A stretch of DNA of 38,620 nt. Origin: a virus. Each line of letters opens with the position of its first letter. Positions within the stretch are counted from its first letter, which is position 1. The stretch lies in the IMG/VR virus record IMGVR_UViG_3300045988_133151, positions 1-38,620 of that record; one strand, given 5' to 3'. Below, piece after piece: positions 2,106 to 12,243 of this stretch. The position numbers and the translations under genes are program-made. The notes beneath the pieces were generated by a model. That model ran no database searches. It was not told the origin of the DNA and worked only from the letters and a program-made list of their open reading frames with translations.

Positions 2106-2212
2106 ATATCAACGCCTTTAGTCGTTGGGCTTATAACGACTAACCACTGCGTATCATAGCCACGCAAGGAATATGCCGATTACCTACAAGGCGGAAAGGA
2201 GGATATTTGACA

Positions 2213-2434
2213 ATGGCAAATGTCAAGAAGTCTGCAACGTTGGAAGTTGAAGACGTGTTTACCAAACAAGTAAACGCCAACTACAAGCGTTGCAAAGAAG
2301 CACGGGAGAAGGTCACAAAACAGCGGCAGGAAGAGCTAAAGCGCATGTATCGCAATAACAAACGTATTGCGGCATGGGGCATTGTGGGCTGTATAGCGGT
2401 TCTTGTTGCGGCCTATGCTATGTGGTTCATTTAA
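2213..2434 (+). CDS. Small protein with a C-terminal transmembrane anchor (73 aa)
   Basis: The RBS aaggagg sits 10 nt before the ATG at 2213; the track calls a TTG at 2207. The C-terminus IAAWGIVGCIAVLVAAYAMWFI is hydrophobic. Confidence 0.5.
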   Translation: MANVKKSATLEVEDVFTKQVNANYKRCKEAREKVTKQRQEELKRMYRNNKRIAAWGIVGCIAVLVAAYAMWFI

Positions 2435-2445
2435 GGGGGTTTGTT

Positions 2446-2748
2446 ATGAACAAGTATTTTGCCACAAGAAGCATCAATCGTCCCTGGAACATTGGGGACA
2501 CAAGAACGCTTATTTACTGCGATAATAACCGTGAATCTATTGCAACGGTTCACAAACGTTTTCCTGATGCTATGCCTGTTACTAGAGAACATGCTTTACA
2601 GCTAGTAAGACAGGAAAGAAGCATCTATCGGAACCACTACGGTTATAATCCAGAGTATCCAACCACGGCCTATATATACCCTTATTGGTGGGAGATGGGA
2701 CGAGCCATTGACGCAACGGATAGCACCGGGTGCATCATCATTATGTAA
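2446..2748 (+). CDS. Hypothetical protein (100 aa)
   Basis: The RBS aaggggg sits before the ATG at 2446 (MNKYFATRS...). The track start at 2374 overlaps the upstream gene and has no RBS. Confidence 0.5.
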   Translation: MNKYFATRSINRPWNIGDTRTLIYCDNNRESIATVHKRFPDAMPVTREHALQLVRQERSIYRNHYGYNPEYPTTAYIYPYWWEMGRAIDATDSTGCIIIM

Positions 2749-2763
2749 GGAGGATATTTTGCA

Positions 2764-3204
2764 ATGGGTACTATTAACTATGGAAGCAACTGCACCAATG
2801 AGGGCCTTCTCAATATTGGCCTTAATTTGAACCGGTTTCGTTCGCCTATAACAATTATGCGTCGCGCAGAGGTGATGCAAGAAATTGTTAATGATTATAA
2901 CGGCACCTGGTTTAAGGTAAACGTTGAACCTGGATACTATGAAGGCGCGTGGGTTTCCATTGAATGGGATGAAGACATACTCTTCTATAACGGGCCTTGG
3001 TCTTTGGAAGAGGTGCGCTCAGAAATAACGTACTTGAATACAATGCTTCAGCTTTTGGTTAATGTTGGGTGCGTGGAATATTGGCCAGGGTGGTGCATGG
3101 GATACAGTACGGCGGCAGAAACAAGAAAGGCCATTATAACCAACGTTGAGCGCCTGTGGGCATATTACAAGAAAACATATCAGGAGGATGAAGGGGATGA
3201 TTAA
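2764..3204 (+). CDS. Hypothetical protein (146 aa)
   Basis: The RBS taaggagg precedes the ATG at 2764. Confidence 0.55.
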   Translation: MGTINYGSNCTNEGLLNIGLNLNRFRSPITIMRRAEVMQEIVNDYNGTWFKVNVEPGYYEGAWVSIEWDEDILFYNGPWSLEEVRSEITYLNTMLQLLVNVGCVEYWPGWCMGYSTAAETRKAIITNVERLWAYYKKTYQEDEGDD

Positions 3205-3361
3205 CAAGAAGGATTTAGAAATTATCCTATCTATGGATAACGAGCTTGAACGGTTACGAATGTTTTTCAGTAAACGGCGCGACAGTCAGGCAGACAAGAA
3301 GGAATGGACAGCAGAAAGTAAGCTGTTTATTAACAAGGTTGAATCAAAGAAAGGGATATAA
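3197..3361 (+). CDS. Small hypothetical protein (54 aa)
   Basis: The ATG at 3197 follows gaagggg and overlaps the upstream stop (ATGA-type coupling). Confidence 0.4.
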   Translation: MINKKDLEIILSMDNELERLRMFFSKRRDSQADKKEWTAESKLFINKVESKKGI

Positions 3362-3366
3362 TTGTT

Positions 3367-3720
3367 ATGAAAAAGTATCTGGTGAACCCTTATGAAGACC
3401 ATTGGATAGAGTGTGACAGTGCAGAAAGTGCCGCGCAGGAGGTAATCGACCGTGTAGATGATTACTATTGGGACGATTTACTTGATGGCGTGTGGGGAGA
3501 AACTACAATATGCGGCCTTGAATATTGTACTTCTCGCGTTTTAAAAATAGCTGACGAAGTGGCTTATAGGTGCGGTAAAAATGATTGGTTAGATGGGGAA
3601 TATAGTGATATAGTATACAGTCTCGAAAGAATGGTAGACGGTGACAAAGAGGACTACTTTGGAATGACTGTCTGCTATGAAGAAGTATACGACGATGAAG
3701 AGGAGGAAGAAGATGAATGA
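3367..3720 (+). CDS. Hypothetical protein with a poly-acidic C-terminus (117 aa)
   Basis: ORF ending ...YDDEEEEEDE. Confidence 0.5.
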   Translation: MKKYLVNPYEDHWIECDSAESAAQEVIDRVDDYYWDDLLDGVWGETTICGLEYCTSRVLKIADEVAYRCGKNDWLDGEYSDIVYSLERMVDGDKEDYFGMTVCYEEVYDDEEEEEDE

Positions 3721-3859
3721 TATAATTCATTGGAAACTATACGCAGAGTGGTTAGACAACGGTAAGTTTTGTGCCGATTGTTTTATGAGCTATGATGAGC
3801 TATGGGACAGGTTGTTCAATCCTGAACTTGAGTTAATCACAATAATTGAGCGCAAGTAA
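3713..3859 (+). CDS. Small hypothetical protein (48 aa)
   Basis: The ATG at 3713 follows gaggaggaag and overlaps the upstream stop. Confidence 0.4.
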   Translation: MNDIIHWKLYAEWLDNGKFCADCFMSYDELWDRLFNPELELITIIERK

Positions 3860-3866
3860 TCATCAA

Positions 3867-3905
3867 ATATAAGCTAGGGTATTTTATCCTAGCTTATATT
3901 TTTAT
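3867..3905 (+). terminator. Rho-independent terminator (12-bp perfect stem atataagctagg/cctagcttatat, 9-nt loop, T-run)
   Basis: The stem is an exact reverse complement at 3867-3878 and 3888-3899, followed by ttttta. It lies just after the last gene of the upstream block. Confidence 0.65.
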
Positions 3906-4273
3906 ACTTATGTTTGTTATTGAATAGTATGGGAACCAGCAGGAGAAGCAGAAAAAATCTTGCACAAAAACAGTGGCGCTGACTTGTATAGTTTGTATAG
4001 AAAACGCTTCTAGCACTTTTTGAATATAGTTATAGCGGGGCAGTGTAAAAGCGCTTAGAGGCCATTCTCGCGGCAATTAGGACTATATACAGTTTGTAAT
4101 TGATTTTGAATACAGTGAGTTATAGAAGTGTTGTGCAAATTGTATAGTTTAGGAATGAAATTTTATATTATTTTGTGCAAATTTTATATAGACTTTTGGC
4201 GGCAAAAAGGCGTATAATAGGGGTACAACAAAGGAAGGGCAACGCCAAAAAGGTGTTGAAAGGTATGTTTGTT

Positions 4274-4468
4274 ATGAAAAAATATAAGGTTTATGACCTA
4301 TATGAAGGTAAGGATGTTGTAGGCTATGCCGATACATTGAATGAGGTGAAACGCCTTGCTAGGGAATGGTTTCGCGATACAGACGGTGAGTGTTGCATGG
4401 TATATGCAGAACTGAACCCCAAAACCAAAAAATATCGGTTTAGTCAATATAAGCCGGTAAAGTTTTAA
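4274..4468 (+). CDS. Small hypothetical protein (64 aa)
   Basis: The ATG at 4274 (MKKYKVYDLY...) lies 12 nt after gaaagg. It is the only plausible ORF in the 3860-5950 region. Confidence 0.4.
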   Translation: MKKYKVYDLYEGKDVVGYADTLNEVKRLAREWFRDTDGECCMVYAELNPKTKKYRFSQYKPVKF

Positions 4469-4480
4469 TTAGAAAATGGA

Positions 4481-4545
4481 ATAATCGAAACGGGGAACGT
4501 TCCCCGTCTGCCGTGGGGTAGCTTCCCGGCACTGACGAGATAGGC
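4481..4545 (+). ncRNA. Candidate type II hammerhead ribozyme (GAAA - stem III hairpin - UC cleavage site - stem I hairpin - CUGACGA)
   Basis: The full core is present in the correct order: GAAA at 4487-4490; stem III cggggaacgttccccg at 4491-4506; U16.1 at 4507 able to pair with A15.1 at 4490; C17 at 4508; stem I tgccg...cggca at 4509-4513/4527-4531; CUGACGA at 4532-4538; G10.1 at 4539 facing C11.1 at 4486. Stem II is only 3 bp (gat/atc) plus possible wobbles, which is the weak point. Confidence 0.35.
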
Positions 4546-4792
4546 TAGTGGGGCTTTTTCTTTTGTCTTTATATTTGTTAATAACAACTATATCAATCTG
4601 CATCTGGCACTATATAACACTGTCCAGCATCTTAAAACAAGGCGCTAAAATCGTCTGTACTGCGTTATAATGTATTGAGTAGGGTAGTTATAGCACTGGT
4701 GCAAAGTGGGCCTTGTGGCGCGTTCTGGAGGCCGTCAGGAGGTATTGTACAAATTGCATAAAAAAGCAAAATAATTTTGTGCAATTTGATTA

Positions 4793-4821
4793 TTGCTTTT
4801 TGTCCTGATTTTTGGTAAAAT
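4793..4821 (+). promoter_or_regulatory. Promoter TTGCTT-N17-TGgTAAAAT inside repeat copy 2, overlapped by an inverted repeat caaattgca/tgcaatttg (4750-4788)
   Basis: -35 at 4793-4798 and extended -10 at 4813-4821. No ORF follows for about 1.1 kb. Confidence 0.4.
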
Positions 4822-5176
4822 ACTTATAGAAAATAAGAAAGGGGGTAAAAAGAAAATAAGGGAGACTGCTTCACAGTGCAAGAGGCAGGGGTAGTTCTGA
4901 GAAAGCCTGGAAGTGAGTAGAGGGAAAGCGCGGGGAGGTTGGTATGATTTCCTAGTTGGTTAGTAGGTTTGACGCATTAATCTGTATCAATGCGCCAGCA
5001 AAAACCGATACTGCACCGCTCAGACCTGCGAGAATGGGCCTAGAAAAAATCCTAGCATTAAACAGGTCAAACTATACCGCTTTACAATGTGGGCCTTACA
5101 ACGCATTTTAGATAGGTCACAGAGGGTCTTGTGCAAAATAGTCAAAAAAATAATATAATTTTGTGCAACTTGCTAA

Positions 5177-5205
5177 TGGACAAGCAGGTAGATTTTTGAT
5201 AAAAT
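5177..5205 (+). promoter_or_regulatory. Promoter TGGACA-N17-TGaTAAAAT inside repeat copy 3
   Basis: -35 at 5177-5182 and extended -10 at 5197-5205. Confidence 0.4.
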
Positions 5206-5206
5206 T

Positions 5207-5301
5207 GTGCTAGGGTGGTTGACTTATACCCTTTTTTATGTTATTATAGCCTTGCAAATCAGGGACGGAAAAAACCGGTTTGATTGCAAGGCTTGTTTTT
5301 T
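5207..5301 (+). ncRNA. Candidate small RNA or attenuator: a promoter-proximal ~90-nt transcript ending at a strong terminator
   Basis: A putative transcription start near 5210 is followed by a small hairpin (agggt...accct) and then a 12-bp stem agccttgcaaatc/gattgcaaggct at 5248-5293 plus a T-run at 5296-5301. No ORF lies between the promoter and the terminator. Confidence 0.3.
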
Positions 5302-5319
5302 AAGAAAAATTTGTTATTG

Positions 5320-5650
5320 GTTAGCATAGTAACAAAAATATCTTTTGAGAACAAGTGTGAACCTTGAAAAATAGTGGTGGATTGCTAAACACCCAATAAA
5401 GTATAACTTTTATTGAAAAGTATGCAGTTGAAATGGTTCGATGGCAAATATTTTTTATTGAATGGCATTTTTTAAGTTCGATATTTGGTGATAAAAGATA
5501 TTTTTCGCTGGAGTTATTTGTTTTCGTGATAACAAATATTTGTTGTACAAAATGCACAAATTAGGTATTTGTCATTAACAAATATCTTTCAATGATTGAT
5601 ACTTGTTTTTGAAAAATGTTTGGTTTTGGCTGATATTTGTCATTGTCGAA
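5320..5650. promoter_or_regulatory. AT-rich cluster of palindromic ACAAATAT/ATATTTGT sites, including a perfect 14-bp palindrome aacaaatatttgtt near 5528
   Basis: At least 7 occurrences of the caaatat/atatttg half-site in both orientations (around 5335, 5445, 5480, 5493, 5528, 5565-5580, 5630). This looks like an operator array or origin. Confidence 0.4.
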
Positions 5651-5951
5651 TCGGGTTCGCGTTTGTGCGGATTATGCGTCGCCAATTTTTTCCCCAGGAA
5701 ATTCAAAAATTCCCCCAGATATATGTACGATATACATACATTCATACATCATATAGTGTATGATTAGTTAATGATTAGAATAATAATTATTGTATTTGTA
5801 GTCAGTGAATGTTGGCCTCGCGCACATTACGCGAAACTTAAAAAATCGCCCACAAGTATATAACAAAAACGCTGTAGCTCCCAAAATAACTGGTTAATTC
5901 AGCGCTTCATCGGAAGATGATAATATTACTATAATATAAGGAGACGATGCT

Positions 5952-6389
5952 ATGAAAATCGAAAACAAAGAACAGTTCAATGAATACATTGATACATTAA
6001 ACAGACGCGGTGCCAAATTTGATTTTGATTGCTGTGAAGTAATTCTATTAAATGACACAATACTTATGCGAGATAAAAGCACTGCGAAACGTTTTCTTGT
6101 GGATACACGAACGGGAGATTGCTTTTGGGTTTACAATGAAAATGAAGAAGTACACAAAGATAATGTGCTTTTAGAAAATGAAAGTGAGGCATGGGCAACG
6201 ATTGAAATTCGTCAAGCTTGCCTCAATTTGCCTAAATACAAAGCGGAAAAAGTAATGCGAGTGCTTGAAGATAAAGACGGTGATGGCATTGTTTTTACTC
6301 CACCTTCTGAAGTTGGGTATTGGGAAAAGTATTTAGATTGGCAAAAGCAAGTTATGTGTGGTGAAATGCCTTGCAATAGTACAAAATAA
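5952..6389 (+). CDS. Hypothetical protein (145 aa)
   Basis: The RBS taaggag precedes the ATG at 5952. The block 5950-10100 is AT-rich. Confidence 0.55.
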   Translation: MKIENKEQFNEYIDTLNRRGAKFDFDCCEVILLNDTILMRDKSTAKRFLVDTRTGDCFWVYNENEEVHKDNVLLENESEAWATIEIRQACLNLPKYKAEKVMRVLEDKDGDGIVFTPPSEVGYWEKYLDWQKQVMCGEMPCNSTK

Positions 6390-6428
6390 TTGCTTTGAAA
6401 AAATCAGCAATTTAATTCAAAGAAAGAC

Positions 6429-6457
6429 TTGACAATGCTATTTCGCTATGCTATAAT
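6429..6457 (+). promoter_or_regulatory. Promoter TTGACA-N17-TGcTATAAT
   Basis: Consensus -35 at 6429-6434 and extended -10 at 6449-6457, upstream of the 6487 gene. Confidence 0.55.
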
Positions 6458-6486
6458 AAACACATAAGCTGAAGGAGGTTTTTGCA

Positions 6487-6753
6487 ATGAACATCGAGCT
6501 GTACAAGAAATGGGCCGCAAAACTCTATACGGAAGATGAGCGGCAGAAGATAAAACAAGCAATGACGACGCTCAAGGAAAAGCTTGTGAAAAATCTTGGC
6601 TTGTTCTATGATGAAGCGGAAATGACCGAAGAAGAGCGTGTTGCCTACGCAGAGCATGAGGTTTTTCTGTTTTTGATTAAAGCTCTTGCTTTTGATATGT
6701 ACAAGAAGGGCGTAGCAGAAGCAGAAATTCTGGAAGTACAACGCAACTTATAG
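6487..6753 (+). CDS. Hypothetical protein (88 aa), helical/acidic
   Basis: The RBS gaaggagg precedes the ATG at 6487. Confidence 0.55.
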   Translation: MNIELYKKWAAKLYTEDERQKIKQAMTTLKEKLVKNLGLFYDEAEMTEEERVAYAEHEVFLFLIKALAFDMYKKGVAEAEILEVQRNL

Positions 6754-7825: not shown

Positions 7826-7902
7826 GGTTCCTTAGCTCAATAGGTTAGAGCATCCAGCTCATAACTGGAAGGTTGTGATTTCGAGTATCACAGGAGCCAC
7901 CA
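7826..7902 (+). tRNA. tRNA with anticodon CAT (Met, or Ile if lysidinylated), CCA encoded
   Basis: Folded by hand. The acceptor stem is 7 bp (ggttcct/aggagcc). The D-arm is gctc...gagc, the anticodon arm is tccag-CTCATAA-ctgga, the T-arm is gtgat-TTCGAGT-atcac, and the discriminator A and CCA sit at 7900-7902. A T-run follows. Confidence 0.8.
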
Positions 7903-7974
7903 TTTTTTAATAAAATTGAAAGCATGGTCTTATTGATTATGGCTTGATAAAATTCTATTAAAAAGGAAAAAATA

Positions 7975-8652
7975 ATGAAAAAAGAAGATGTTAAAAATCA
8001 AGAAAGCGTATTTGAAGTTTTGTATGAGTGTAATTTTAGGTCAAAAGATGGGCATAAAATGTTTCATGTAAAATGCAAAGAGTGTGGCTGGGAAACAAAC
8101 ATGCAAAAACATCAAATAAAATATGTAAAAAAATGCAACCACATGAATGTAGGGAAAAATTTTTATATCGTACCTTATAACTGGAAGAATGAAAGAATTA
8201 GAAGAATTTTTTCTGGAATGAAATCTCGATGTTACAGACCTGGTGAAAAAGATTATAAGTATTATGGAGGAAAGGGAATTAAAATTTATGAAACATGGTT
8301 AAAAAATCCTTCTGCTTTTGAAGAATGGGCGCTTTCTAACGGATATAAAGATAATTTAACGATAGATAGAATTGACGCAACAAAAGATTATTGTCCTGAA
8401 AATTGTAGATGGGTTTCTTTAGAGGATAACGCAAAATATAAATTAACAACAAAAATGTTATTGGTAGATGGAGAAAGTCACACAGGACGAGAATGGGCTG
8501 AAATCTTAAACTTAGGCACTAATACTATAAATGTAATGAGAAGAAACAATTCAATAAACAAAGTAATAGAGTTTATTAGAAGGAGAAAACAAGACATTAC
8601 CAGAAATCGTACTAATAATCAGTCTTGGTTTGAAGTTTATGGATTAGAATAA
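7975..8652 (+). CDS. HNH-family (HNH_3-like) homing-type endonuclease (225 aa)
   Basis: A C-terminal motif LTIDRIDATKDYCPENCRWVSLEDNAKYK resembles the HNH_3 homing-endonuclease signature. The N-terminus has CxxC and C/H residues. The gene is AT-rich and sits next to a tRNA and an IS element. Confidence 0.5.
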   Translation: MKKEDVKNQESVFEVLYECNFRSKDGHKMFHVKCKECGWETNMQKHQIKYVKKCNHMNVGKNFYIVPYNWKNERIRRIFSGMKSRCYRPGEKDYKYYGGKGIKIYETWLKNPSAFEEWALSNGYKDNLTIDRIDATKDYCPENCRWVSLEDNAKYKLTTKMLLVDGESHTGREWAEILNLGTNTINVMRRNNSINKVIEFIRRRKQDITRNRTNNQSWFEVYGLE

Positions 8653-8979
8653 ACAATCTGAAAAAATCCACCATCTAAACAAATAGTACACTAATATTTG
8701 AGTTTGCGGTTCTCAAGATAATCAAAACCGCTTTATCGGACTACGGTGTTTGGGCATAGCCGGTTAATTAGCAGGTGAAAACTTTTGTCGTAGCTCCCAA
8801 AAGATAACAGTGCGGCTAATGGCAGGAGTTGGGTCATTCCCAGCTAGTCCGTCCAACGTAGATTGTTGTGTGATTTAAATCAATTAGTCAGAAATCCCAT
8901 TAGCTTTAGCTGATGGAATGAATGGCAGAGAATGGTTATATATAAGAAAATATATTGAAAATTAAGGAAGTGATTATAG

Positions 8980-10083
8980 ATGTTTAAAGCGTATAAATAT
9001 CGCTTGTATCCTAATAAGGAACAACAAAAATATTTTGCAAAATGTTTTGGATGTGTACGATTCATCTATAATCGTATGCTTTTAGATAAGATTGAGTATT
9101 ACAAAGAAACAAAACAAAAATTGAATAATACACCTGCTCAATATAAAAAAGAATTTCCTTGGTTGAAAGAAGTAGGTTCTCTTGCATTAGCAAATGCTCA
9201 GATGAATTTACAGGCAGCTTACAATAACTTCTTCAAAAGACCAGAAGTAGGATTTCCAAAATTCAAAAGTAAGAAAAATCATAATTGCTCTTATACTACT
9301 AATAATAAAAGTGGAACTATTTATGTAACTGATAAACACATTAGATTGCCTAAGATTGGCTTAATTAAAATAAAGAAACATAGAGACTTTGCAGGGTTGA
9401 TTAAGTCGGCTACTATTTCGCAAAAACCTTCTGGCAAATATTATGTATCTATTTTGGTTGACCAAAAAGATAAAGAAAAATTGCCTATGAATAATAATGA
9501 GATAGGAGTTGACCTTGGGCTTAAAGAATTTTGTATTACTTCTAACGGTGAAATGGTTAAAAATCCTAAATATTTAAAAAAATCTGAAAAACGATTAAGA
9601 AAGTTACAAAAAGATTTGTCTCGCTGTAAAAAAGAAAGTAAGAATAGAGAAAAATGCAGAGTTAAGGTTGCAAAACAACATGAAAAAATTGCGAATCAAA
9701 GAAAAGATTTTTTACATAAACTTTCTAAAAGATTGATTAACGAAAATCAAGTTATTTGTCTTGAGGATTTAAAAGTAAAAAATATGATGAGTAATCATAA
9801 ATTAGCAAAATCAATAGCAGATGTATCTTGGAGTGAATTTGTAAGGCAATTAGAATATAAAGCTGATTGGTATGGACGAGAGATTATTAAGATTGATACT
9901 TGGTATCCTTCTAGTCAGATATGTTCTAATTGCGGTCACAAAGATGGGAAGAAAGCATTATCAATAAGAGAATGGACTTGCTCTGTTTGTGGAACACATC
10001 ACGAAAGAGATATAAATGCAGCAATAAATATTCTCAATGAAGGTTTGAGAATGAAAACCGTAGGAACTACGGTGTTAGCCTAA
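8980..10083 (+). CDS. tnpB: TnpB (IS605 OrfB-family RNA-guided nuclease), 367 aa
   Basis: The N-terminus [15 protein letters not shown]...FGCVRFIYN is characteristic. The RuvC-like region contains [10 protein letters not shown], and the zinc finger is CSNCG...CSVCG. The RBS aaggaag precedes the ATG at 8980. Confidence 0.85.
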
Positions 10084-10390
10084 GTAAACTTGTGCGGTTG
10101 TGCATATTGATTAGGAAGCCCAACAAGCTTTAGCTTGTGGGTGGTTCACCTGCGTTAAAAAATAAAATCACATTATAAAAAGCTTTTCCTTCGGGAGTAG
10201 CCAAAGATATGTTAGGGATAAGTATTTTTGGTAATTAAGCAAAACTGTTTGCGGTAAGCAGGGCACAAGCTAAAAACCGCTTTATGGCAAAGGTGATGTA
10301 ACAGCAAACCATCTTAGTTTTGCGATGACTAAGTTATGCGGGTTGGAGTCCCGCCCTTGCCGCCAATACGCCTTGAAAATTAAATAGCAA
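10084..10390 (+). ncRNA. Probable omega-RNA (reRNA) scaffold region of the TnpB element; 3' boundary not determined
   Basis: In IS200/605 elements the TnpB guide RNA derives from the right-end region downstream of tnpB. This stretch is structured, with hairpins at 10118-10140, 10250-10283 and 10340-10360. Confidence 0.35.
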
Positions 10391-10443
10391 ATTTTTTGGT
10401 TCTCTATCTCCTCCGTTGTTTAATTTTTCATGTATCTCCTTTC

Positions 10444-10463
10444 TTTTTTTTTTTTTTTTTTTT
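10444..10463. repeat. Homopolymer T20 tract
   Basis: Counted as 20 consecutive T directly from the sequence, preceded by tctcctttc. It lies just right of the IS right end. Confidence 0.7.
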
Positions 10464-10606
10464 GTTTTACTATTTAGTTTGTCAAGGCGTTATATCGGGC
10501 AACAAACCGCATGAAGTTTGAAGCCTGCTGATGATTTGTTTTTAGAAAAAGTGCTTTTATGGTTCTCTTCCCCCATCGAATCATTTAAGCGCTTTTTCTG
10601 TACTTC

Positions 10607-10692
10607 CTGTAAAAAATGTGAAAATGAAGCAAAAACTCGCTGTAAAAAGTGTAAATTTCAATGGAAAATCACTGTTAAAATGTGAAATTGTC
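10607..10692 (+). promoter_or_regulatory. Three direct repeats of ctgtaaaaa(a/g)tgt(g)aaa(a)tt spaced ~33 bp apart; candidate protein-binding (arm-type or operator) sites
   Basis: Copies sit at 10607-10626, 10640-10659 and 10672-10692, with the same orientation and roughly three helical turns between them. They lie about 700 bp upstream of the integrase. Confidence 0.4.
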
Positions 10693-10744
10693 TTTTAGTT
10701 AGATTTACTAATATCTCAAATAGGCTTTTATACAACTTGCCTAT

Positions 10745-10773
10745 TGAATATCGGACGAAGAAGTTATATAATA
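10745..10773 (+). promoter_or_regulatory. Putative promoter TTGAAT-N17-TATAAT
   Basis: Lies upstream of the lipoprotein gene. It is a weaker match than the consensus promoters elsewhere in the window. Confidence 0.35.
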
Positions 10774-10802
10774 AAAATATAAAATATAAGGAGGTCAACA
10801 AA

Positions 10803-11339
10803 ATGAAAAAGTTGATTATTATGATTCTTGCAGGTGCGATGGTATTGAGCATGGCATCTTGCGGAAATCAGCCGTCAGAAGAAGCAAGCAATGACTCATT
10901 GACTCAAAGTACAATCCAGGAAAAGAGCTTTTATCTAAGTCCTAATACTATAGTTGCACTTCAGCGTTGCTATAATAATCTGAAAGAACTTGGTAATGCT
11001 GGTATGGTTGTTTGCGACGATGTAGTTGTATTTGATGCAGGAAGCGAAAGCGGCGAAGTTGTTTGCGCTAAAGTTATGTATGCTGAATACGAAGGTGTTG
11101 TTGAGGGTACAGAAATCGAAATTAGCTTTGATAAATATGGGCTGATTGATGGCGTTTATGTTGAAGGGAACCCTTGCTTCATTGGTGCGAGAGAATGGTA
11201 TTTGAGTGCAGATACAGAAACTCAAAGAAAAGCAAGCGAAAAATTTACTTGCTACGATGCCGCAAAAGTAGTATCAGAAATGCGCTCCTGGAAAGGGTAT
11301 GAAAATACCTTTCTCGCAAAAGATTACCTGAAAAATTAA
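10803..11339 (+). CDS. Lipoprotein (178 aa); candidate superinfection-exclusion or host-surface factor
   Basis: The RBS aaggagg sits 8 nt before the ATG at 10803. The signal peptide MKKLIIMILAGAMVLSMASC carries a lipobox Cys. The track start at 10737 is an upstream extension. Confidence 0.6.
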   Translation: MKKLIIMILAGAMVLSMASCGNQPSEEASNDSLTQSTIQEKSFYLSPNTIVALQRCYNNLKELGNAGMVVCDDVVVFDAGSESGEVVCAKVMYAEYEGVVEGTEIEISFDKYGLIDGVYVEGNPCFIGAREWYLSADTETQRKASEKFTCYDAAKVVSEMRSWKGYENTFLAKDYLKN

Positions 11340-11347
11340 AAAAGTTC

Positions 11348-11376
11348 TTGACAATGCTACAAATCTGTGTTATATT
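11348..11376 (+). promoter_or_regulatory. Promoter TTGACA-N17-TGtTATATT
   Basis: -35 at 11348-11353 and extended -10 at 11368-11376, upstream of the integrase. Confidence 0.5.
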
Positions 11377-11406
11377 ATAGTTACAGAAACAAAGGGGGAT
11401 TTAAAA

Positions 11407-12243
11407 ATGTTGAAGCAGTATGAAGCTTATCTAAAAGCAGAACATAGAAGCCAGCGGACGATTGATTCTTATCTTGACACTTGTGCTAAGATGATGAACT
11501 ATATTAGCAAGAAAGTAAGCGATGTTACTTATGCTGACTTAATGGAATGGAAAGGCACTTTAGCAAATTTAAGTCCTTCTAGCGTAAATCAGAAGACTGC
11601 GGCAATTAAGAACTTTTTCTCTTGGTGTCAGTTTATGGGATATACTGAAAGCAATCCTGCGGCTGATATGAAGCGTCTGAGAGCAAATCCTAAAGAAAGC
11701 ATTTATATAGGCGCAGAAGAGATTGAAGCATTTCTGGGTGCTTGTAGAAGTATCAGAGATAAAGCTATGCTAACTGTCATGGTGAAAACAGGTGTTCGTC
11801 AGCACGAACTCGCGAGTCTCACAATTTACGAATACTTCAAGATGAGAAATGAAGGCTCTAATTTTTTAGTAATTGTTGGTAAAGGAAACAAGGAACGTAA
11901 GATTTACTTCAGTGATGAAGTTATGGATTTAGTTGATGAGTACGTCATTTGGAGAAATAACCATGCTGTCAATAGCGACCGGTTATTCTTGACCTTTGCA
12001 GGATTGCCGCTTAATGATTCTGGTATGAACAGAGTTATTAAGAATACAGCCAAAAGAGCTGGACTTGCAAACGCTGAAGAGTACACTTGTCATTCGTTAA
12101 GAAGGGCTTTTGCTACTATTAAATCAAACAATAATGTCCCTATTGCTATTATTGGTAAAGCGTTGGGTCATTCTAATATTGCAACAACCACAAGATACAT
12201 TGAGACTAACGACGAGCTTATTGAAGCCGCCATGACAATGTAA
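11407..12243 (+). CDS. int: Tyrosine recombinase/integrase, XerC/D-like (278 aa)
   Basis: An N-terminal core-binding-like domain is followed by a catalytic domain with R (VRQHELASL region), H-x-x-R (CHSLRRAFAT) and HSNIATTTRYIE carrying the catalytic Tyr. The RBS aaagggggat precedes the ATG. Confidence 0.85.
   Translation: MLKQYEAYLKAEHRSQRTIDSYLDTCAKMMNYISKKVSDVTYADLMEWKGTLANLSPSSVNQKTAAIKNFFSWCQFMGYTESNPAADMKRLRANPKESIYIGAEEIEAFLGACRSIRDKAMLTVMVKTGVRQHELASLTIYEYFKMRNEGSNFLVIVGKGNKERKIYFSDEVMDLVDEYVIWRNNHAVNSDRLFLTFAGLPLNDSGMNRVIKNTAKRAGLANAEEYTCHSLRRAFATIKSNNNVPIAIIGKALGHSNIATTTRYIETNDELIEAAMTM

Follow-up and report, generated by a model that had tools for sequence, protein, structure and literature searches.

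A type II hammerhead ribozyme behind a small phage gene: a probable RNA-processing module that lost its downstream gene

Positions 4483-4549 of the window, the whole 38,620-nt stretch of viral DNA that was analysed (IMG/VR record IMGVR_UViG_3300045988_133151), hold a genuine type II hammerhead ribozyme that lies on the sense strand of the operon read from the promoter at 4189-4218 and very probably works as an RNA-processing module of the kind proposed here. Its identity, structure, conservation and genomic arrangement were shown by the analysis. The locus comprised the following features:

4189-4218, + strand: sigma-70-like promoter TAGACT-18-TATAAT (10/12 matches), which drives the small-gene cassette island
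4264-4285, + strand: 22-nt RBS/start-codon repeat TATGTTTGTTATGAAAAAATAT, found in two copies in the closest relative, L001
4274-4468, + strand: gene of a 64-aa protein (PHROG 24326) with SD AAGG at 4260-4263, directly upstream of the ribozyme
4483-4549, + strand: type II hammerhead ribozyme, full Rfam match
4484-4486, + strand: stem II 5' strand (A, U, C11.1), partner of 4539-4541
4487-4489, + strand: core G12 A13 A14, invariant in the subfamily alignment
4490-4507, + strand: stem III hairpin, A15.1-U16.1 plus CGGGGA/UCCCCG, with loop ACGU
4508-4509, + strand: predicted cleavage site between C17 (4508) and U1.1 (4509), from the Rfam alignment position
4509-4531, + strand: stem I hairpin, UGCCG/CGGCA plus an inner G-C extension, whose loop holds the pseudoknot 5' strand
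4519-4524, + strand: pseudoknot 5' strand UAGCUU in loop I, pairing with 4542-4547
4532-4538, + strand: core C3 U4 G5 A6 C7 G8 A9 (CUGACGA)
4539-4541, + strand: stem II 3' strand (G10.1, A, U)
4542-4547, + strand: pseudoknot 3' strand AGGCUA in the 3' tail, pairing with 4519-4524
4548-4549, no strand: deletion junction, placed by BLAST blocks, with 228 nt missing relative to L001
4549-4565, + strand: 3' half of a terminator (UGGGGC plus U-tract), a remnant whose 5' partner is deleted

The window represented the replication and accessory region of a dsDNA phage, with all genes and the ribozyme on the + strand. It encoded DnaB, a primase, RecJ, a 1294-aa PolIII-alpha-like polymerase and a Sak4-like protein, along with a tyrosine integrase, an HNH endonuclease and an IS605 TnpB. 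The polymerase was nearest to those of Enterocloster (Lachnospiraceae) phages, at only ~46% amino-acid identity, and one related locus came from a human gut metagenome; BLASTN in distant mode returned no GenBank phage nucleotide match to window 3300-6500. The promoter sequence at 4189-4218 was conserved upstream of different cassettes in L001 and L021. Substitutions in the 64-aa gene were distributed over the three codon positions as 3:1:13 against L004 and 16:11:38 against L002, a skew that indicated a real gene under purifying selection. For the cassette proteins, Pfam and PHROG searches returned families of unknown function only. Upstream of the island, a very strong terminator of the intrinsic type, with a stem of 17 bp, a loop of 3 nt and a T-run, was observed at 3865-3901, closing the preceding transcription unit just before the promoter region.

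When both strands of the whole 38.6-kb window were compared with all 4227 Rfam families, two matches reached gathering level: one tRNA, and Hammerhead_II (RF02276) at 4483-4549 (+). The latter scored 47.2 bits against a gathering score of 37 (E = 8.8e-7), and the alignment covered the model at full length (positions 1-66 of 66). Even at E <= 1, a permissive Rfam scan detected no further ribozyme in the window. The original prediction, made by reading the letters alone, had placed a candidate type II hammerhead at 4481-4545 and had staked it on a covariance-model match; a match above threshold was obtained, and every core element was found where that reading had put it. The class assignment was borne out by the Rfam score, the complete core, covarying stems I and III and a pseudoknot typical of the class. 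The location also held, whereas the 3' end did not, as the element runs to ~4548, with the tail at 4542-4547 pairing to loop I.

The catalytic core was complete, and all its positions except N7 were invariant in 13 relatives. Position 7 is C in the window and U in the relatives, N7 being non-conserved in the class consensus. The core-adjacent pairs were all correct (G4539-C4486, or 10.1-11.1; U4509-A4531; A4490-U4507, or 15.1-16.1) and agreed with those by which hammerheads were accepted in an earlier survey (PMC3088659). In stem III, 4491-4496 paired with 4501-4506; in stem I, 4509-4513 paired with 4527-4531, extended by G4515-C4526 and G4516-C4525 or an equivalent. Both stems were recovered exactly by the nearest-neighbour MFE fold, with a z-score of -1.6 for the 91-nt segment. 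Cleavage is predicted to yield ...GUC with a 2',3'-cyclic phosphate and 5'-OH-UGCCG..., product ends that follow from the cleavage chemistry of the class (PMC8782182).

Stem II consisted of 3 bp (C4486-G4539, U4485-A4540 and A4484-U4541), which had been singled out beforehand as the weak point of the assignment. This objection did not stand: a 3-bp stem II is a documented trait of the class, here backed by a 6-bp pseudoknot, and stems as short as 1-2 bp have been accepted for type II hammerheads (PMC3088659). Stem II was also formed in the homologues, where its C-G and U-A pairs occurred in 13/13 copies and its third pair varied between A-U, G-U and U.U. The pseudoknot helix of 6 bp included one G-U pair and had a duplex energy of -4.5 kcal/mol. 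Within the subfamily alignment 91% of its cells were paired, and at the orthologous site in L144 it consisted of CGCCC/GGGCG instead of UAGCUU/AGGCUA.

A search with the tail held fixed barred stem II and pseudoknot covariation in the subfamily set, and a tail-free pattern search was therefore run, which returned at least 120 viral loci. Of 141 type II hammerheads of distinct sequence, whose tails were of 111 kinds, 77 could form a helix of at least 5 bp between loop I and the tail, compared with 22 +/- 3.5 when the tails were permuted and a maximum of 33 in 300 permutations. The pairing of loop I with the 3' tail has been shown by mutation and compensation to be needed for fast cleavage (PMC3088659). 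The 6-bp pseudoknot of the window copy compensates for its short stem II.

Conservation was assessed in the window's own subfamily, for which a tail-motif search gave 16 viral stretches with 13 distinct ribozyme sequences. Standard pairs filled 94.7% of the cells in the alignment of the 13 copies, as opposed to 33-41% when the pairing partners were slid by 1-3 columns. Stem III was paired in 100% of cells and stem I in 95.5%; changes on both sides were seen in nine pairs (4/6 in stem III and 5/7 in stem I), and 0 of 500 column shuffles reached the observed covariation score. The feature that sets this subfamily apart within the RF02276 type II class is its invariant tail, GAGAUAGGCUAG. A homology search found homologues of the 64-aa gene in four IMG/VR contigs, two of which carried the hammerhead. 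The window hammerhead was 99-100% identical to the L001 copy, and its preservation after the deletion described below thus reflects recency rather than selection.

When contigs of a genome collection were scanned with the tail motif, 15 of the 16 matches were chance 17-mers lacking a hammerhead. The sole real match, L156 1446-1533, lay in the Patescibacteria MAG JAHCSE010000023.1 and had the same GAGAUAGGCUAG tail followed by AGGAG. This one sequence shows that the subfamily extends beyond gut Firmicute phages; because only L156 was real and the rest were chance matches, the scan gave no host assignment.

The arrangement of genes around the ribozyme was regular across the family. In the relatives the order is an upstream stop codon, the ~70-nt hammerhead, an SD and an ATG, with the stop codon of the upstream ORF falling within -5 to +14 nt of the ribozyme 5' end. 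An SD-like AAAGG or GGAGG with an ATG ORF of at least 40 codons followed 10-16 nt past the tail in 13/16 copies of the subfamily. The same held more widely: an ORF start lay 15-40 nt after the CUGAUGAG core in 103 of 132 viral type II hammerheads (78%), against 27.5 expected for random positions in the same loci, and only 8 (~6%) had no ORF start within 60 nt. The flanking proteins were 40-146 aa long and unrelated between loci.

Perreault et al. (2011; PMC3088659) described prophages in which single genes, with identities that were "not constant", are flanked by multiple hammerheads, and also a hammerhead that precedes a start codon by 13 nt. In D. vulgaris, type II hammerheads close to phage-like genes have been shown to be active in vivo (PMC8782182). 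The purpose of phage ribozymes is still described as elusive, the leading idea being that polycistronic RNA is cut into pieces of differing stability or translatability (PMC6765202). Tandem type II arrays were observed as well, in L015 and L081, with spacings of ~200-870 nt and one or few ORFs between copies. L015 carried three hammerheads ~350 nt apart at 11223-11989 on the minus strand that were 96-99% mutually identical; L081 carried seven at 8403-11315 that were only 58-75% mutually identical.

We propose that transcription from the promoter of this phage early/accessory operon would run through the 64-aa gene and that stems III and I would then fold as hairpins, with the 3-bp stem II closing the three-way junction. 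The pairing of tail 4542-4547 with loop I 4519-4524 would hold stems I and II parallel, and the RNA would cleave itself between C4508 and U4509. Across the family, a module lying between small unrelated genes would in this manner cut polycistronic RNA into gene-length pieces. The upstream mRNA would carry the hairpin of stem III and a 2',3'-cyclic phosphate at its 3' end, and the downstream mRNA would begin with a 5'-OH and a structured leader made of stem I and the pseudoknot, its SD and ATG following 10-16 nt past the tail. The module would therefore act as a natural insulator, by which expression of each cassette becomes independent of its neighbours. We infer that cleavage actually takes place and that it influences mRNA stability and translation.

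The window copy departed from the family arrangement on its downstream side. BLAST against L001 gave three collinear blocks, in which window 2195-4286 corresponded to L001 652-2745 (92%), window 4265-4548 to L001 2992-3275 (99.3%) and window 4549-4980 to L001 3504-3935 (99.5%). The 228-nt piece that follows the hammerhead tail in L001, and that is missing at 4548-4549, contained an SD, a 66-aa ORF and the 5' half of a terminator. The deletion began exactly past the last base of the ribozyme module, so that the full pseudoknot tail was kept, and no microhomology was found at the junction. The terminator is intact in L001 (AAAAAGCCCttTGGGGCTTTTTCTTTT), and the window retains only TGGGGCTTTTTCTTTT at 4549-4565; L022 and L142/L143 have intact terminators at the homologous place, with different, compensating stems. 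As the terminators of all these relatives are intact, the window state is a derived deletion, and the 99.3-99.5% identity to L001 on both sides shows it to be recent. An exact search for the junction sequence did not find it elsewhere in IMG/VR. The next terminator-like site on the + strand is at ~5168.

Two other candidates in this region were rejected. A 40-codon GTG ORF at 4548-4670, which starts within the tail and would make the hammerhead a leader, showed substitutions of 9:9:9 by codon position against L022, and its frame is broken there; no hidden ORF was found in 4469-5951 in any frame or under alternative genetic codes. The stem III hairpin was likewise dismissed as a terminator, including a minus-strand terminator-like match at 4505-4493, this being a by-product of the palindromic stem.

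The deletion may also have altered folding. A nested partition-function model, which ignores the pseudoknot, tertiary contacts and kinetics, kept stems I and III (P = 0.74-0.99) but paired the U-rich tract now adjoining the tail with parts of the core (GACGA) and of the tail (AGGCU). In this model the probability of being unpaired for those core and tail parts was 0.07-0.2 in the window, compared with 0.3-0.87 in L001. The modelled pairing with the new U-tract could slow cleavage of the window copy.

The position assigned to the ribozyme in the original prediction, the 3' UTR of the 4274-4468 gene, was correct for the window. However, it does not describe the native role: in the relatives the ribozyme is a leader, and the 228-nt deletion removed the next gene, making the 3' UTR a derived situation and the element better described as an orphaned intercistronic module. 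With the gene downstream deleted, along with half of the terminator, the window copy would be left with a job at the 3' end only, which is to define the end of the 64-aa mRNA and to shed read-through RNA. The 7-bp hairpin of stem III, together with a 2',3'-cyclic phosphate, would cap that end, and the shed RNA would run into non-coding promoter/operator-like repeats at 4745-4800. Separation of the small-gene mRNA from downstream non-coding RNA, as first suggested, is accordingly a reasonable role for this copy, although a secondary one and not the usual role of the module.

Whether the window copy still performs such a job bears on a second reading, in which the structurally intact hammerhead is a functional relic, the former leader of the deleted 66-aa gene, and will decay. 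We regard this as a serious but unlikely possibility. It fits the family statistics, in which an ORF directly follows 78% of viral type II hammerheads and is missing from the next 60 nt in only ~6%, and in the window the GTG ORF that follows is non-coding. It also fits the recency of the deletion (flanks 99.3-99.5% identical to L001), the occurrence of the deletion allele in no other IMG/VR contig, and the predicted competing pairing of core and tail with the new U-tract. The breakpoint points the other way, since a deletion that ends at the module's last base is expected if the ribozyme is still useful, for example in replacing the terminator, and a 3'-UTR role has been proposed for bacterial ribozymes (PMC6765202). 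A single deletion event cannot tell a relic from a copy with retained function.

The RNA-processing role was further addressed through the genes around the 64-aa homologues. A survey of 16 distinct loci with such homologues revealed five layouts, including that of the window:

twister / gene / hammerhead / ORF: L001, L004, L144
twister / gene / terminator: L142, L143
gene / twister / ORF: L002, L003, L146, L148-150, L152
no ribozyme: L145, L147, L151, L153
promoter / gene / hammerhead / remnant: the window

Between the shared promoter and the 64-aa gene, L001 has an extra 247-nt piece holding a 65-aa ORF and a twister-P5 ribozyme (55.1 bits, GA 37.6), with the stop codon of the ORF inside the twister. 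The two copies of the 22-nt repeat in L001 bound this 65-aa ORF and twister-P5, both absent from the window. Twister-P5 (RF02684) has a fold unrelated to that of the hammerhead and does not occur in the window; in the seven-locus layout, though, which belongs to more distant orthologous loci, it takes the same junction, after the 64-aa orthologue and before the next SD and ATG. In L001, L004 and L142-144 it lies on the other side of the 64-aa gene. The replacement of the hammerhead by twister-P5 after an orthologous gene argues that cleavage itself is the selected function. Reviews note that twisters and hammerheads have gene neighbourhoods in common (PMC6765202).

The mobility of these modules could be viewed at the level of DNA instead, with the ~70-nt hammerhead and twister modules serving as portable junctions or recombination hot spots that shuffle small accessory-gene cassettes between and within phage genomes, a role we consider rather improbable. 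Each ribozyme would then travel or recombine together with its SD as one unit, and the breakpoints in the window would result from such events. Homology was indeed confined to the module: 32 of 44 hammerhead pairs at least 88% identical had both 140-nt flanks unrelated and only two shared both, and L008, L017, L019 and the three copies of L015 had only 63-75 nt and a few SD bases in common. As the stems vary freely across the class, such near-identical copies indicate recent common ancestry of the module alone. The flanking proteins were unrelated, the block of homology between the window and L001 stopped exactly at the tail, the 64-aa gene family occurred in five junction configurations, and the island was hypervariable between phages otherwise ~90% identical. 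If true, recombination at the modules would explain near-identical ribozymes with identical variable stems between unrelated genes, the class swaps at orthologous junctions and the homology block that ends at the tail.

However, the same pattern would arise, with no DNA-level function, if strong selection on the RNA were combined with the homologous recombination that ordinarily takes place at any conserved 70-mer, and the sample itself was ascertained by pattern matching. The right-hand deletion in the window joined no two ribozymes and involved no microhomology, and the left-hand event used the 22-nt RBS/start repeat and not a twister. No dedicated recombinase was linked to the modules, the integrase at 11407-12243 being a generic tyrosine recombinase ~7 kb away. 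Literature searches found no published link between hammerheads and phage mosaic junctions.

Bracketing of one gene by two ribozymes, the arrangement of Perreault et al. (2011), was absent from the window and present in L001, L004 and L144, where the 64-aa gene has a twister-P5 upstream and a hammerhead downstream. Such bracketing would free an RNA of ~285 nt whose 5'-OH and 2',3'-cyclic phosphate ends are substrates of RtcB-type ligases, and could suggest a circular-RNA or retrozyme-like element in which a gene-length RNA is excised by both ribozymes and then ligated. This is very improbable here: the window has no upstream ribozyme, neither a reverse transcriptase nor RtcB was seen in its annotated part, the surrounding DNA is an unremarkable replication module of a dsDNA phage, and the other members of the family carry at most one ribozyme. 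A chance resemblance, or a simple hairpin or terminator, was refuted computationally and deserves next to no credence, as the 3-bp stem II, the z-score of only -1.6 and the U-tract at 4555-4565 are set against E = 8.8e-7 across all Rfam families, compensatory changes that conserve the element, the presence of the pseudoknot, and the origin of the U-tract as a terminator remnant 47 nt from the stem III hairpin.

An RNA-processing module, the preferred reading, can be compared with several known systems. With the type II hammerheads of RF02276 (PMC3088659), the window copy shares the core, the topology with stems I and III capped and stem II open, the short stem II and the 6-bp pseudoknot, as well as the phage or prophage context, the varied small genes and, in its relatives, the distance of ~13 nt before a start codon. 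Nothing structural separates it from them; it differs in the C at position 7 and in having no downstream gene.

RiboJ is a hammerhead placed between a promoter with its upstream RNA and an RBS, and was engineered from a type III satellite-RNA hammerhead with an added hairpin. A similar principle is seen here, as a hammerhead just before an SD strips off whatever RNA varies upstream, and the leader left behind is defined and structured and starts with a 5'-OH, but the module is natural and of type II, and in the window no RBS follows it. The hyperplastic regions of T4-type phages likewise have short repeats between accessory genes, known as PeSL (promoter-early stem-loop) repeats; PeSL and integron attC sites act via promoters and terminators or a dedicated integrase. 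As in those systems, variable islands contain small accessory ORFs, unrelated to one another and set apart by short structured repeats, and homology does not extend past the repeat. In contrast, the repeat in our study is a ribozyme, and its role in recombination is a proposed one.

The ribozyme call adds one more instance to a known family with thousands of members, and as a standard Rfam scan detects it, there is little new in the call itself. The added value lies in a natural allelic series around one conserved 64-aa gene in phages that are otherwise ~90% identical. These near-isogenic variants, together with the 78% ORF figure and the module-limited homology, provide material with which the insulator and processing hypothesis could be tested.

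Several further observations were made in the window and its relatives. About 1 kb at 4981-5951 is AT-rich and holds no ORFs in any genetic code, and it is conserved at ~89% in L021 and L022, equal to the flanking genes. It contains more promoter-like sites than expected (18 against 8.7 +/- 3.3), as well as the inverted repeats ATTTGTCATTAACAAAT (5566-5586 and 5632-5651), which have a partner at 4571-4590. Lying upstream of the replication genes, the stretch is a candidate for an origin of replication or for a regulatory region. A near-palindromic motif, TTGTGCAAAT/TTGTACAAAT, occurs at 4131-4146, 4173-4188, 4745-4760, 4777-4792, 5129-5177 and 5543-5560, usually paired and adjoining promoter-like hexamers, and resembles an operator/promoter module at which a phage regulator would act. 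The motif set includes a ~95-nt direct repeat (4702-4793 and 5085-5177, ~72% identical), and mosaic breakpoints at window 4751 and 4787 fall inside the motif region.

RAGATH motifs owe their definition to an association with genes that occur in the vicinity of twister and hammerhead ribozymes. One such RNA, RAGATH-18, was matched at L022 6827-6887 (59.6 bits, GA 44.9), between the equivalents of window 10657 and 10781. The ~480-nt L022 segment that carries it corresponds to ~124 nt in the window, where RAGATH-18 had no match. ARAGORN called an 80-nt tRNA-Arg(GCG) at window 10286-10365 that had no Rfam tRNA match even at E <= 1 and may be an atypical or pseudo-tRNA. A match to 'Plastid-ycf2 5'UTR' at 7826-7900 (minus), also seen in L021 and L022, was discarded as a spurious reading of the antisense of tRNA-Met, its 40 bits lying below the gathering score of 65.7. 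Between this tRNA-Met (7826-7902) and the tRNA-Arg (10286-10365), ~2.2 kb at 7904-10138 is absent from the syntenic relative L021. In this segment lie genes for an HNH endonuclease (7975-8652) and for a TnpB of the IS605 family (8980-10083), the latter with OrfB_IS605, Cas12f1-like TNB and HTH domains, and the segment probably represents one or two mobile-element insertions.
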